This document shows positions 301 through 32,665 of a stretch of DNA of 45,197 nt, one piece after another. The stretch's first letter is position 1. Each line of letters starts with the position of its first letter. The notes below the pieces were generated by a model. It saw only the letters and a list, made by a program, of their open reading frames with translations. It was not told the origin of the DNA and searched no databases. The DNA comes from Escherichia phage PhiNW-E1: sequence record PQ476011.1. The stretch is one strand, 5' to 3'. Position numbers and translations under genes: made by a program.

Positions 301-745
301 TATGTATAGATGGTATGAATCTCAAGGTTATACCATCTTACCTTCAGGTGTCATCCTTTCCAAGGGTGGCACACCTCTCAAACCTTTTAAGGCGGGTAGT
401 GGTTATTTAGCAGTTAAGCTTAAAAACAAAGAAGGTAAATGGCGTAACGTCTATGTACATCAATTAGTGGCTTATAAGTATTTACCTAAAACAGGTAATG
501 AAATAAATCACAAAGACGGTAATAAGCACAATAATAATGTTAGTAACTTAGAGTGGGTAACAAGAAGTGAAAATAATTATTTAAAATGCAATGGAAATGA
601 TAGGAGTGCCTTAAATAAATACTTAGCAGTATTAAAGGATTGCTTCTTGCAAGGTAAGAGTATAGCAGAAACAGCTAGACTTACTGGTAAAAGTGAACCG
701 AGAGTTTCTTCTATCTTTAAGGAGTGGCGAAATGGCAAAGGCTAG
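293..745 (+). CDS. HNH homing endonuclease (free-standing, between terminase subunit genes)
   Basis: 150 aa; HNH motif region VHQLVAYKY...NHKDGNKHNNNVSNLEWVTRSEN; C-terminal HTH-like segment; paralog of ORF 15186-15602. Confidence 0.75.
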   Translation: MSNMYRWYESQGYTILPSGVILSKGGTPLKPFKAGSGYLAVKLKNKEGKWRNVYVHQLVAYKYLPKTGNEINHKDGNKHNNNVSNLEWVTRSENNYLKCNGNDRSALNKYLAVLKDCFLQGKSIAETARLTGKSEPRVSSIFKEWRNGKG

Positions 746-1898
746 AGAATCACAGGCAGAAGCATTAAAGAGGTGGGAAAACCTTAAGGAGCTGCAAGAC
801 ACTTTTAAATATACAGCGGAAGGTTTGCTTCTCTTTGCAGATACAGTTATTCATAACTTAATTGCAGGCAACCCCCATCTGATTCGTATGCAGGCGGATA
901 TCTTGAAGTTCCTATTTTACGGACACAAGTACCGCCTCATCGAAGCGCCCCGTGGTATCGCTAAGACAACACTATCAGCAATCTATACGGTATTCCGTAT
1001 TATTCATGAACCGCATAAGCGTATCATGGTTGTGTCCCAAAACGCCAAGCGAGCAGAGGAAATCGCAGGTTGGGTAGTTAAAATCTTCCGTGGCTTAGAC
1101 TTTCTTGAGTTTATGCTGCCGGATATCTACGCTGGGGACCGTGCATCCGTTAAGGCGTTTGAGATTCATTACACCCTACGTGGCAGTGACAAGTCGCCTT
1201 CTGTGTCTTGTTACTCAATCGAAGCAGGTATGCAGGGTGCGCGTGCAGATATCATCCTAGCAGATGACGTTGAGTCAATGCAGAATGCTCGTACAGCGGC
1301 AGGACGTGCCTTGCTTGAGGAACTGACCAAGGAGTTTGAATCTATTAACCAGTTTGGTGATATTATCTACCTTGGTACTCCTCAGAACGTAAACTCTATC
1401 TACAATAACCTACCTGCTCGTGGTTACTCTGTTCGTATCTGGACTGCACGTTATCCCTCAGTGGAGCAGGAGCAATGCTATGGTGACTTCCTTGCACCTA
1501 TGATTGTGCAGGATATGAAGGACAACCCCGCACTTCGCTCAGGGTACGGGTTGGATGGTAATAGTGGTGCACCTTGTGCCCCTGAAATGTATGATGATGA
1601 AGTCCTGATTGAGAAGGAAATCTCGCAGGGTGCGGCTAAGTTCCAGCTTCAGTTCATGCTTAACACTCGCATGATGGATGCTGACCGCTATCCGCTACGC
1701 CTGAACAACCTCATCTTCACTTCATTCGGTACAGAGGAAGTCCCTGTGATGCCTACATGGAGCAACGACTCTATTAACATCATTGGCGATGCACCGAAGT
1801 ATGGCAATAAGCCTACAGACTTTATGTATCGCCCTGTGGCCCGACCGTATGAATGGGGCGCTGTCACCCGTAAAATTATGTACATTGACCCCGCTGGT
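732..1898 (+). CDS. Terminase large subunit, exon 1 (ATPase domain through ...KIMYIDPAG)
   Basis: RBS TTAAGGAGTG 718-727 then ATG 732; ORF runs to a stop at 1947-1949 but homology to T7 gp19 stops near YIDPAG; exon end at T1898 inferred from P1 pairing GCTGGT(1893-1898)/GCCAGC(1909-1914). Confidence 0.75.
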
Positions 1899-2644
1899 AA
1901 ACACCTCTGCCAGCGTAAAACCCTCTTAATTCGGTGGAACTCTCACTGAGACAATACCGAGCGAAGCCTGTTGCAATAACAGGAACGTGTAGAGACTAAC
2001 TGTAAGGCCAAGCGGTCTGAAACAGAGGGAGGCGCAAGCCTAAGATATAGTCCGACCTACTAGGTGACTAGTAGAAGTTAAAGTAGCGAATTAACGTAAC
2101 AATTGAAGGGAGTTAAATATGACAGAGCATAAAGTTTATCATATTCGTGTTGTTGGTGAAACTGATGTAATGCAAGGTTATATTGGTGTAACCTCCGATA
2201 TTAAGAAGCGTATGAGAGAGCACAAGTGTGCAGGCCGTCTTTGTGATGGCCGCGAGTACGTTATCTTATTCACTGGTAGCAAAGAAGAGTGTTATGCACT
2301 AGAAGAGAAGCTACGCCCACATGACAACATGTGTTGGAATAAGGGTAAAGGTGGTTATCGCAAAGCAGGTAACATCGAGAAAGGTGAACGCATAAGTATT
2401 GCCACTGAAATCAAGAAAGGACAGCACTTGTCTGTTGCCACTGAGTTCAAGAAAGGCATGACACCTTACAACAAAGGTACTGGCAAAGATTACATATTCA
2501 CTTCTCCAGATGGTGAAGAGTTTCTTGTAACTTGCATTACTGACTTCTGTAAAGAGCACAACCTAACACCTCAGAATATGCGTAAGGTGGCACGTGGTTT
2601 ACGTAAACACCACAAGGGTTGGCTCGCACGTCACGTTCAAACCG
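1899..2644 (+). mobile_element. Group I intron (IA-like core) carrying a homing endonuclease ORF
   Basis: P-like AATTCGGTGGAA 1928-1939; Q-like AATACCGAGC 1953-1962; R-like GTGTAGAGACTAAC 1987-2000; S AAGATATAGTCC 2041-2052; P3 CCCTCT 1921-1926 with AGAGGG 2024-2029; P7 GACTA/TAGTC; omega G at 2644; P10 CCTCT 1904-1908 with GGAGG 2645-2649. Confidence 0.7.
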
Positions 2645-2652
2645 GGAGGTAA
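2119..2652 (+). CDS. GIY-YIG homing endonuclease with NUMOD-like repeats, intron-encoded
   Basis: 177 aa; N-terminal KVYHIRVV...GYIGVT (GIY-YIG-like); repeated IATEIKKGQH / VATEFKKGMTPYNKG segments; RBS AGGGA 2106-2110; stop TAA 2650-2652 lies 8 nt into exon 2. Confidence 0.7.
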   Translation: MTEHKVYHIRVVGETDVMQGYIGVTSDIKKRMREHKCAGRLCDGREYVILFTGSKEECYALEEKLRPHDNMCWNKGKGGYRKAGNIEKGERISIATEIKKGQHLSVATEFKKGMTPYNKGTGKDYIFTSPDGEEFLVTCITDFCKEHNLTPQNMRKVARGLRKHHKGWLARHVQTGR

Positions 2653-3376
2653 GAATGGGGATGAAACGGGTGTGGCTATCGTCTTCCTGCACGGCACATT
2701 CATTTACGTGTATCAGTGCTTCGGTGTGCCAGGCGGATACCGTGAATCGTCCCTGAATCGCATTGTGCAGGCCGCAAAGCAGGCGGGTGTTAAAGAGGTA
2801 TTCATTGAGAAGAACTTTGGTCATGGCGCGTTTGAGGCCGTTATAAAGCCATACTTTGAACGAGAGTGGCCTGTAACTCTGGAAGAGGATTACGCCACAG
2901 GACAGAAAGAGTTGCGTATCATTGAGACGCTGGAGCCACTCATGGCGGCGCACAGGCTCATCTTCAATGCCGAGATGGTCAAGTCTGACCTTGAGTCAGT
3001 ACAGCACTATCCACTTGAACTACGCATGTCCTACAGTCTTTTCAATCAAATGTCGAACATCACGATTGAGAAGAACAGCCTCCGGCACGATGACCGCCTA
3101 GACGCCCTGTATGGCGCTATACGGCAATTAACTTCTCAGATAGACTATGACGAGGTTACACGGATTAATCGCCTCAGAGCGCAGGAGATGCGCGATTACA
3201 TCCATGCTATGAATACACCTCATCTACGCAGGGCAATGCTATATGGAGATTACGGTACTGAGCGAAGAGTGACCAACACTTCCGTAGCGATGCAGCAGCG
3301 AGTTTACGGGCAGAACTACCGAAATAAATCGGCAAGCAGAAATACACTTTCTGCAAGGATTTCAAGGACTTATTAA
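2645..3376 (+). CDS. Terminase large subunit, exon 2 (nuclease domain, begins GGKNGDETGVAIV)
   Basis: Frame continues from exon 1 when 1899-2644 is removed, giving ...YIDPAG|GGKNGDETG..., comparable to the T7 gp19 segment DPSGRGKDETG as I recall it; the ORF-track Met at 2594 is intronic. Confidence 0.75.
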   Translation, partial: GGKNGDETGVAIVFLHGTFIYVYQCFGVPGGYRESSLNRIVQAAKQAGVKEVFIEKNFGHGAFEAVIKPYFEREWPVTLEEDYATGQKELRIIETLEPLMAAHRLIFNAEMVKSDLESVQHYPLELRMSYSLFNQMSNITIEKNSLRHDDRLDALYGAIRQLTSQIDYDEVTRINRLRAQEMRDYIHAMNTPHLRRAMLYGDYGTERRVTNTSVAMQQRVYGQNYRNKSASRNTLSARISRTY

Positions 3377-3397
3377 TTACTGGACACTATAGAAGGA
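3375..3397 (+). promoter_or_regulatory. Phage RNAP promoter
   Basis: AATTACTGGACACTATAGAAGGA; predicted +1 G at 3392; overlaps terL stop codon. Confidence 0.7.
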
Positions 3398-3537
3398 AGG
3401 CCAAGATAATAAGATAAAATAATAGGTAATATATAGGTTAACCTAGGTTATATAGGTATGCCTTAGTATGGGTGTACTCCTGTACACCCTATTCCTTACT
3501 ACCTTACTATATTTACATAATAGGAGAGAGAGAGACA

Positions 3538-5043: not shown

Positions 5044-5066
5044 ATTTACTGGACACTATAGAAGAG
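5044..5066 (+). promoter_or_regulatory. Phage RNAP promoter
   Basis: GATTTACTGGACACTATAGAAGAG; +1 G at 5061. Confidence 0.7.
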
Positions 5067-15739: not shown

Positions 15740-17728
15740 ATGGCTATTATTCAGAATGTACCGTGTCCTGCCTGTCAAAAGAATGGACACGATAAATCCG
15801 GCAATCATCTCATGATATTTGATGATGGTGCTGGCTATTGTAACCGTGGTCATTTCCACGATAACGGCAAGCCTTACTATCATAAGCCAGATGGTGGCAT
15901 CGAGATCACCGAGTTGCCTATTACTGGCAATATCAAATATACACCTTCTCAATTCAAAGAGATGGAGAAGGAAGGGAAGATAAGCGACCCTAAGTTACGC
16001 GCCATCGCACTTGGTGGCATGCGTATGAAAGACCGATGGGAGGTCATGAATGAGCAAGAAAGGGCAGACCAAGAAGCAGAGTGGAAACTTGATGTTGAAT
16101 GGTTCCTCACGCTTAAGCGTAAGAATCTTGTTTCCCGACACATTCGCGGCGACATTTGCGCATTGTATGATGTACGTGTCGGACACGATGAAGATGGTAG
16201 AGTCTCACGGCATTACTATCCACGCTTCGAGAAAGGTGAGCTAGTAGGCGCTAAGTGTCGCACATTACCTAAAGACTTTAAGTTTGGTCATTTAGGTAAA
16301 CTCTTTGGTATGCAAGATCTTTTCGGTATGAATACCTTGTCTCACGTGTTAGACAAGGGAAGACGAAAGGATTGCTTGCTTATTGTGGGCGGCGAACTGG
16401 ATGCACTAGCAGCACAGCAAATGCTCCTTGATTCTGCCAAGGGTACTAAGTGGGAAGGCCAGCCTTACCATGTATGGTCTGTCAATAAAGGTGAGTCTTG
16501 CCTTGAAGAGATAGTACAGAACCGTGAACACATCGCCCAATTTAAGAAGATTATATGGGGTTTTGATGGCGACGAGGTGGGGCAGAAGCAGAATCAGCAA
16601 GCGGCTCGCCTGTTTCCTGGCAAATCCTATATCCTTGAATACCCTTCTGGTTGCAAAGATGCTAACAAGGCATTGATGGCTGGCAAGGCTAAAGAGTTTG
16701 TTGATGCTTGGTTTAATGCCAAGTCATCTGATGAAGTCTTTGGTAGCCAGATTAAATCTATCGCATCTCAAAGGGATAAGCTCAAGGCTGCACGTCCAGA
16801 GCAAGGGTTATCATGGCCTTGGCCTAAGCTGAACAAGGTAACGCTAGGTATTCGTAAGAACCAGCTTATCATTGTAGGTGCAGGCTCTGGTGTAGGTAAG
16901 ACTGAGTTCCTTCGCGAAGTGGTTAAGCACCTCATTGAAGAGCACGGTGAATCTGTAGGCATCATTTCTACAGAAGACCCGATGGTCAAGGTGTCCCGTG
17001 CTTTTATCGGTAAGTGGATTGATAAGCGTATTGAGTTACCGCCAACCAACGACCCGAAAGAAGACGGATACCGTGAGGTGTTCGACTACACCGAGGAAGA
17101 AGCTAACGCTGCCATTGATTATGTGGCTGATACAGGAAAGCTATTTGTGGCTGACCTAGAGGGTGACTATTCGATGGAGAAGGTAGAGCAAACTTGCCTA
17201 GAGTTTGAGGCTATGGGTATTTCTAATATCATCATTGATAACTTAACGGGGATTAAATTAGATGAGCGTGCTTTTGGTGGGAAGGTTGGTGCACTTGATG
17301 AATGCGTCAAACGAATTGGTACTATCAAAGACCGACATGCGGTTACGATTTTCCTTGTCTCTCACCTTACACGTCCTCCGGCAAACCGTACCCAACACGA
17401 AGAAGGTGGCGAAGTTATCCTTTCTGACTTCCGAGGCTCAGGCGCTATCGGATTCTGGGCATCTTACGCCTTGGGGATTGAGCGTAATACAAGAGCTGAA
17501 ACGCTTGATGAAAGGACTACCACGTACATCTCTTGTGTCAAAGACCGCGACCAAGGTATCTACACAGGAACCAAAGTCATGCTCAAGGGTGACATTCAGA
17601 CCGGACGCTTGAGAGAACCACAAGCTAGAACAAGGTCGTTTGATACAGGCGAAGCAAGGCAACAAGAAGTACCGGATTTACCGGACACTATAGAAGAGAC
17701 AACATTTGACGATGAACAGGAGTTTTAA
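15740..17728 (+). CDS. DNA primase/helicase (T7 gp4 family)
   Basis: 662 aa; N-terminal Cys zinc motif CPACQKNGHD...CNRGH; Walker A GAGSGVGKT; acidic C-terminal tail ending DDEQEF. Confidence 0.9.
   Translation: MAIIQNVPCPACQKNGHDKSGNHLMIFDDGAGYCNRGHFHDNGKPYYHKPDGGIEITELPITGNIKYTPSQFKEMEKEGKISDPKLRAIALGGMRMKDRWEVMNEQERADQEAEWKLDVEWFLTLKRKNLVSRHIRGDICALYDVRVGHDEDGRVSRHYYPRFEKGELVGAKCRTLPKDFKFGHLGKLFGMQDLFGMNTLSHVLDKGRRKDCLLIVGGELDALAAQQMLLDSAKGTKWEGQPYHVWSVNKGESCLEEIVQNREHIAQFKKIIWGFDGDEVGQKQNQQAARLFPGKSYILEYPSGCKDANKALMAGKAKEFVDAWFNAKSSDEVFGSQIKSIASQRDKLKAARPEQGLSWPWPKLNKVTLGIRKNQLIIVGAGSGVGKTEFLREVVKHLIEEHGESVGIISTEDPMVKVSRAFIGKWIDKRIELPPTNDPKEDGYREVFDYTEEEANAAIDYVADTGKLFVADLEGDYSMEKVEQTCLEFEAMGISNIIIDNLTGIKLDERAFGGKVGALDECVKRIGTIKDRHAVTIFLVSHLTRPPANRTQHEEGGEVILSDFRGSGAIGFWASYALGIERNTRAETLDERTTTYISCVKDRDQGIYTGTKVMLKGDIQTGRLREPQARTRSFDTGEARQQEVPDLPDTIEETTFDDEQEF
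17676..17698 (+). promoter_or_regulatory. Phage RNAP promoter embedded in the 3' end of the primase/helicase gene
   Basis: GATTTACCGGACACTATAGAAGAG; +1 G at 17693. Confidence 0.65.
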
Positions 17729-22476: not shown

Positions 22477-22499
22477 ATTTACTGGACACTATAGAAGGA
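22477..22499 (+). promoter_or_regulatory. Phage RNAP promoter
   Basis: GATTTACTGGACACTATAGAAGGA; +1 G at 22494; followed by TAGGT-rich leader. Confidence 0.7.
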
Positions 22500-23247: not shown

Positions 23248-23268
23248 TTACTGGACACTATAGAACAA
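23246..23268 (+). promoter_or_regulatory. Phage RNAP promoter
   Basis: TAATTACTGGACACTATAGAACAA; +1 G at 23263. Confidence 0.7.
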
Positions 23269-24391: not shown

Positions 24392-24414
24392 ATTTACTGG
24401 ACACTATAGAAGAG
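24392..24414 (+). promoter_or_regulatory. Phage RNAP promoter
   Basis: TATTTACTGGACACTATAGAAGAG; +1 G at 24409. Confidence 0.7.
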
Positions 24415-32642: not shown

Positions 32643-32665
32643 ATTTACTGGACACTATAGAAGGG
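32643..32665 (+). promoter_or_regulatory. Phage RNAP promoter upstream of capsid gene
   Basis: TATTTACTGGACACTATAGAAGGG; +1 G at 32660. Confidence 0.7.

Follow-up and report, generated by a model that had tools for sequence, protein, structure and literature searches.

A probable mobile group I intron with a putative GIY-YIG homing endonuclease gene in the large terminase gene of a K1E-like Vectrevirus

In Escherichia phage PhiNW-E1, a K1E-like Vectrevirus, what is very probably a mobile, IA2-related group I intron interrupts the large terminase gene at positions 1899-2644. The window, i.e. the whole stretch of DNA analysed (45,197 nt, PQ476011.1), represents the genome of a K1E-like podophage of the SP6 supergroup, with 93-96% nucleotide identity to known isolates and an exact match to none. 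The finding itself is already known, PhiNW-E1 being another isolate that carries the K1E terminase intron. An earlier note on this DNA had left open whether the intron was described in a close relative, and this is indeed the case for both K1E and phD2B. A literature search, which did not extend to the original K1E genome paper, found no splicing or endonuclease experiment for the intron or its K1E twin; catalytic splicing, the activity and target of the endonuclease and a dependence of packaging on splicing are what we infer from sequence comparison.

Reading from the start of the window, the small terminase gene (1-300) is followed by an HNH endonuclease ORF (293-745) and by the large terminase gene (terL), which begins with the ATG at 732. 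Exon 1 aligns with T7 gp19 (8dgc, E 3e-81), placing D386 of the window opposite T7 D365, which, from general knowledge of terminase nucleases, we take to be an active-site residue. The last codons of exon 1 are ATT GAC CCC GCT GGT, ending with T1898, and the exon-1 frame then enters the insert for 17 codons (51 nt) before it is closed by a TGA (ORF 693-1949). The gene resumes at G2645 with GGA GGT AAG AAT GGG GAT (GGKNGDETG...) in a different genomic frame, the insert length of 746 nt corresponding to 3 x 248 + 2. The frame had previously been read as stopping after ...IDPAG and resuming about 750 nt later in another frame, and it does so at these coordinates. Insertion at a conserved active-site motif, a location favoured by inteins too, would also be expected for an intein or another protein-level insertion that is removed after translation. 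This reading is refuted by the reading frames: the exon-1 frame runs into its stop codon after 17 codons, and exon 2 lies in another frame, beyond a stretch that is not a multiple of three. Pfam found no intein domains either, and we attach no probability to a protein-level insertion.

The HNH ORF located between the two terminase genes (+ strand, 150 aa) matches Pfam HNH_3 with an E-value of 1.8e-11, together with a weak HTH match, and overlaps both of its neighbours. AAPEc6 has such an ORF at the same place; the intron-bearing phages K1E and vB_EcoP_C are without it, and in this respect K1E differs from the window. The window phage unites two endonuclease-type genes around terL, the HNH ORF and the intron ORF.

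Table 1 Features of the interrupted large terminase gene and its surroundings (window coordinates; paired segments of a helix are separated by a slash)
Feature	Position	Strand	Remarks
terL exon 1	732-1898	+	389 codons; ATPase part and first nuclease strand, ends ...MYIDPAG
terL exon 2	2645-3376	+	243 codons and stop; remaining RNase H-like nuclease domain, C-terminus
TGA closing the exon-1 frame within the intron	1947-1949	+	in P5 loop
Ribozyme 5' block	1899-2101	+	Rfam 61 bits and covariation
P1	1893-1914	+	exon end GCUGGU (1893-1898) with internal guide GCCAGC (1909-1914)
P10 guide CCUCU	1904-1908	+	partner is GGAGG, first five exon-2 bases (2645-2649)
P3 (CCCTCT/AGAGGG)	1921-26/2024-29	+	
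P4	1930-36/1955-61	+	
P5	1941-44/1948-51	+	
P6 (CCTGTT-GCAAT-AACAGG)	1967-72/1978-83	+	hairpin 1967-1983
P7 (GACTA/TAGTC)	1994-98/2048-52	+	
Single hairpin between P7 and P3	2005-09/2014-18	+	
P8	2030-33/2038-41	+	
P9	2057-63/2068-74	+	
P9.1, extra hairpin past P9	2077-81/2091-95	+	revealed by six-sequence alignment, conserved
P box	1928-1939	+	
Q box	1953-1962	+	
R box	1987-2000	+	
S box AAGATATAGTCC	2042-2053	+	
Shine-Dalgarno-like AAGGGAG	2106-2112	+	6 nt upstream of endonuclease ATG
Homing endonuclease ORF (putative), 177 aa	2119-2652	+	GIY-YIG domain, linker, I-HmuI-like tail
Omega G, last intron base	2644	+	3' splice site directly after; boundary fixed by insert-free alleles
Promoter-consensus matches, first four	97-112, 3380-3395, 5049-5064, 17681-17696	+	<=3 mismatches
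Promoter-consensus matches, further four	22482-22497, 23251-23266, 24397-24412, 32648-32663	+	<=3 mismatches

The insert-free phage AAPEc6 is without exactly 746 nt, between T1898 and G2645, and a shift of the boundary by a single base in either direction fails to recreate the junction seen without the insert. When 1898 is joined to 2645, the sequence reads ...CCCGCTGGT/GGAGGTAAG... (the slash marks the junction), and insert-free terL of the AAPEc6 or K1-5 type reads GCGGGTGGTGGT at this position. Splicing in silico yields a protein of 632 aa that aligns with AAPEc6 TerL without gaps and is identical at 630 of the 632 positions. That an intron splits the large terminase, as proposed in the earlier note, is borne out both by this collinearity with uninterrupted terminases and by the exact absence of the insert from insert-free relatives. 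The junction is located three codons past the Asp aligned with T7 gp19 D365, where the RNase H-like nuclease domain begins; unless the RNA is spliced, the first strand and loop of this domain are interrupted. When exon 2 is searched alone, PF22530, the profile of the RNase H-like domain of T7-type terminases, scores 113 bits (E 1e-32) and begins at profile position 5, compared with 122 bits over profile positions 1-108, spanning the junction, for the spliced protein. The uninterrupted terminase junction is present in at least 95 phage records. Two public records named Escherichia phage K1E disagree at this point: NC_007637 (L001) has the 746-nt intron, and the terminase of KY435490 (L017) is uninterrupted, with the junction GCGGGT/GGCGGT.

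The Rfam group I intron model (RF00028, Intron_gpI) matches positions 1826-2074 with 61 bits (E 3.5e-13; gathering score 50), and is the sole Rfam family matched across the 45-kb window. In this alignment the P3-P9 core is well placed. Its 5' end is misplaced onto an exon hairpin (1830-1862), and a P1 at this hairpin was rejected as an artefact of the Rfam alignment, the true P1 being formed by the exon end and the internal guide. The same model scores 56-64 bits in the copies from K1E, phD2B, VEN, P284, PA28, Kpp-61, PST_H2, L013 and L015, and gave no match where the insert is absent (AAPEc6; control L002). As P9.1 is conserved among diverged copies, the ribozyme block extends to about 2101. 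The elements listed in the earlier note are present in the window, with P, Q and R boxes, P3, P7, P1 with its U.G pair, P10 and G2644 all as given there; the S box and the P6 hairpin are likewise found, but the S box had been placed one base too early, at 2041-2052, and the P6 loop, given as GCAATAA, reads GCAAT.

Diverged copies of the intron were gathered from phD2B (Lelliottia), VEN (Vibrio), P284 (Klebsiella), PA28 (Pseudomonas) and a Bacillus phage tape-measure gene, and four further metagenomic loci, reached via the endonuclease protein, were added to these. With the structure written from the window sequence, 96.9% of cells in an alignment of six diverged sequences were paired, compared with 34-40% in controls in which the partners were slid by 1-3 columns. 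Two-sided changes were seen in 28 of the 49 pairs, and the observed values were reached by none of 500 shuffles. RNAalifold, applied to seven full-length introns, independently recovered P1, P3-P6, the hairpin between P7 and P3, P8, P9 and P9.1. P7 is invariant among the copies, and covariation is uninformative for this helix.

The 5' splice site lies after U1898, which forms the U.G pair of P1 with G1909. All six pairs of P1 are formed in each of the ten copies, with compensation between exon and guide: GCUGGU is matched by GCCAGC in the window, and an exon reading GCGGGU is matched by a guide of GCCCGC or GCUCGC (U-A to G-C). RNAalifold identifies two covarying positions in P1. Five P10 pairs are formed in nine of the ten copies and four in the tenth, the GGAGG partner being present in all of them. 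The first exon-2 codon is GGA in every intron-bearing allele, where it completes P10, and GGC or GGT in insert-free alleles. The terminal G is also kept in 10/10 copies. The assignment to group I made in the earlier note is therefore upheld by the covariance-model scan (61 bits against 50) and by helices, including P1, that are kept by compensatory changes.

A true two-piece terminase has to be weighed against these observations, in which case a free-standing homing endonuclease would have split the gene, and the halves would be translated separately and assemble without splicing. The K1E database records do give each piece its own CDS instead of a spliced gene (40A, 40.5 and 40B, with 40.5 a putative homing endonuclease), the same layout is seen for vB_EcoP_C, Kpp-61 and PST_H2, and a 260-aa product could be initiated at a GTG (2594) that follows AAGGTGG. 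However, the invariant RKVA residues of the endonuclease dictate the AAGGTGG sequence, and the annotated 40B starts vary between records, falling inside the endonuclease ORF or inside exon 2. Furthermore, the gene would be split inside the nuclease domain, three codons past the conserved Asp, and an intact ribozyme core under structural selection occupies exactly the gap, with boundaries that conform to the rules of a U.G pair and a terminal G and that bring the frame back exactly. The two-piece reading was rejected on the basis of the reading frames and the presence of the ribozyme, and we regard it as highly improbable.

The ORF carried by the group I intron is placed downstream of P9.1, and an AAGGAG-type motif ahead of its ATG is conserved in relatives. 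Its length of 177 aa and its stop 8 nt inside exon 2 (TAA 2650-2652) are as the earlier note described them. In the predicted protein, a GIY-YIG catalytic domain (residues ~1-80) is connected through a poorly modelled linker to an I-HmuI-like DNA-binding tail (residues ~120-175), i.e. a GIY-YIG nuclease domain joined to a separate DNA-binding module. The Pfam GIY-YIG score of the window protein is 21.2 bits, just under the cutoff of 22.6; among the homologs, 17 match GIY-YIG and 19 match the I-HmuI NUMOD-like domain. Residues Y7, Y21, R31, H35, E62 and N74 are invariant over 24 homologs, down to 41% identity, and the GIY-YIG fold together with these catalytic residues agrees with the enzyme family named before. 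Foldseek missed the GIY-YIG domain, searching solved structures with a sequence profile failed to recover I-TevI, and an NCBIfam search found nothing. Judged by its residues and domains, the ORF product is a modular homing endonuclease of the GIY-YIG family whose DNA-binding tail is of the I-HmuI type, and for which cleavage of a target would be predicted. Four diverged endonuclease homologs are also located in split T7-type terminases. A hairpin over the start codon (2116-2145) is shared by most copies; its stability (-5.6 kcal/mol, z -0.62) does not exceed that of shuffled sequence, and it was discarded.

The phage-type promoter consensus CTGGACACTATAGAAG has 11 matches with at most 3 mismatches, all on the + strand, compared with 0.6 expected. 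Those nearest to the intron are located at 97-112, inside the small terminase gene and just upstream of the HNH and terminase genes, and at 3380-3395. Because no match with at most 3 mismatches is found inside the intron, the endonuclease ORF must be translated from the terminase precursor RNA; the P9 hairpin (TAGGTGACTAGTAGAAG), considered as an SP6-type promoter, was rejected on the same grounds. A terminator-like hairpin (3470-3489, + strand, GGGTGTAC-TCCT-GTACACCC, followed by a T-rich tract) lies approximately 95 nt past the terminase stop, just after the promoter match at 3380.

We propose that transcription from the promoter at 97-112, or by read-through, would supply the precursor RNA, which would fold into the P1-P9.1 core. 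Guanosine would attack after U1898, positioned by P1, and P10 together with G2644 would position the 3' splice site, so that joining of 1898 to 2645 would give an mRNA for the full 632-aa terminase. In a mixed infection the endonuclease would presumably cut insert-free terminase alleles, with repair copying in the intron plus flanking exon sequence.

The insert might alternatively be a real intron in decay, with an inactive endonuclease, or with splicing that is not autocatalytic and needs host or phage factors. The Rfam score is just 11 bits over the threshold, P2 is absent, and a single hairpin (2005-2018) is found between P7 and P3, compared with two in VEN and in the loci L012, L013 and L014. 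The remote 3' splice site also fits such a state, as a search of seven diverged copies, including RNAalifold, found no conserved helix docking the 3' end, ~570 nt beyond P9, to the core. The best candidate for a helix bridging the 530-nt ORF, GGUGU/ACACC, is a weak pairing of 5 bp that is broken in three of the seven copies, and was dropped as unsupported. On the other hand, all catalytic residues and an intact frame are kept across the 24 homologs, and the near-identity of the intron across hosts that are 74% identical points to a recent and effective spread. The carrier phages are moreover viable isolates, and terminase must therefore be made. We consider decay quite unlikely, and prefer a functional mobile group I intron.

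RNAalifold additionally proposed a pairing of the S box stretch GAUAUAGUCC (2044-2053) with the G-Y-I-G codons of the endonuclease, GGUUAUAUUGG (2176-2186), the two being complementary in 7/7 copies. This pairing would compete with P7 and is without two-sided changes; it is probably coincidental, each partner being conserved for other reasons.

The endonuclease ORF crosses the 3' splice site in nine of the ten copies, taking its TAA or TAG from exon-2 codons 2 and 3. One of these copies uses TAG instead of TAA, its exon codon differing, and in the sole copy without an exon stop the ORF terminates 5 nt ahead of the splice site. The last three sense codons of the ORF hold both the terminal G and the P10 partner. 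A stop codon located in exon 2 appears to be a previously undescribed feature. It may be a neutral convenience, which is the simpler reading. That the overlap serves as a built-in control coupling translation and splicing is a tentative and rather unlikely suggestion. If true, a ribosome completing the ORF would disrupt the 3' splice-site pairing on the same RNA, and the ORF of the excised intron would be stopless, its product being rescued and degraded. The endonuclease would then be made only from the unspliced precursor, at the cost of terminase mRNA.

A comparison of identity levels indicates that the intron has recently spread horizontally. Relative to Kpp-61 (Klebsiella) and PST_H2 (Salmonella), the ribozyme is 98-99% and the endonuclease gene 94% identical, with exons at 74%; in the case of K1E, the respective values are 100%, 99.8% and 94%. 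The window terL is itself a mosaic: between 1686 and 2728 all 44 of 44 informative sites are of the intron-bearing (vB_EcoP_C) type, and both ends of the gene are AAPEc6-like. Such a donor-type exon tract around the intron would fit co-conversion during homing. terL has further mosaic blocks away from the intron, showing general recombination to be common in this gene as well, and the flanking tract is for this reason not specific proof of homing.

The intron of K1E gene 40 (40A/40.5/40B; NC_007637, AM084415) occupies the same site and has the same length (746 nt) as that of the window. The introns of phD2B and VEN share the window's site (DPAG/GG), architecture, endonuclease family and exon-2 stop codon, with cores that are 84% and 79%, and endonuclease genes that are 73% and 61%, identical to those of the window, respectively. 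The 2014 genome note on phD2B described its terminase as split, mentioned both the intron and the homing endonuclease, and pointed to K1E. Related introns were also found in other Autographiviridae (P284 and PA28). In P284 (L009, Klebsiella; 1473 onward) the terminase is split two codons later, after DPAGCG, and the end of the inserted ORF coincides with that of the intron; in PA28 (L006, Pseudomonas) the related match (1443-1669) lies ~14 kb into an unannotated genome. Two of the metagenomic loci merit mention in their own right. L012 has a second group I-like match (607-848; 48.9 bits, just under threshold) in the ATPase part of its terminase, followed by a 246-aa ORF, and this terminase may carry two introns. 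In L014, an HNH_3 ORF (689-1192) precedes a terminase exon 1 that is shortened (317 aa), and the terminase intron of this locus (2278-2994) aligns well with that of the window and was not reported by Rfam even at E 0.01.

Outside terminase genes, the tape-measure intron of Bacillus phage BMBtp13 has a homologous core, as identified by a BLAST match to the window, and scores 97 bits in Rfam; its annotated downstream gene is an HNH nuclease, in contrast to the GIY-YIG ORF of the window. The window intron is related to introns classed as IA2. TMP-IVS1 and TMP-IVS2 of Bacillus cereus-group prophages were called typical IA2 introns, with K1E listed among their relatives, and the same 2008 survey of Bacillus introns names 'Enterobacterial phage K1E (large terminase)' among the phage relatives matching IA2-type tape-measure introns (PMC2504315). 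TMP-IVS1/IVS2 differ from the window in host gene, in P1 and guide, and in peripheral elements.

Other phage introns provide partial parallels. The T4 td intron lies in the thymidylate synthase gene and carries its I-TevI ORF in the P6 loop. The DNA-binding part of I-TevI differs from that of the window ORF, the tail of which resembles the HNH enzyme I-HmuI. In the T4 nrdD (sunY) intron, the I-TevII ORF separates the core from a remote 3' splice site, as the ORF does in the window, and the DNA polymerase introns of PhiI and W31 illustrate that group I introns do occur in T7-type phages. The sunY and PhiI/W31 introns reside in other host genes and carry other endonuclease families, and we are aware of no report of an ORF among them that terminates at a stop codon of the downstream exon.

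Both the occurrence of group I introns in terminase genes of phages and the K1E intron itself are already on record, and the present case opens no new question. Its main practical value concerns annotation, as the locus is best entered as a single terminase gene with spliced exons. In public records of K1E-type phages the terminase appears as two fragments, a possible source of error in protein counts, phylogenies and TerL-based predictions of packaging type. For this group of phages, the comparison points to an intron and endonuclease pair that is actively spreading among podophages of E. coli, Klebsiella, Salmonella, Lelliottia and Vibrio, with the insertion invariably at one and the same active-site motif of the nuclease, and several of the carrier phages are considered for therapy.
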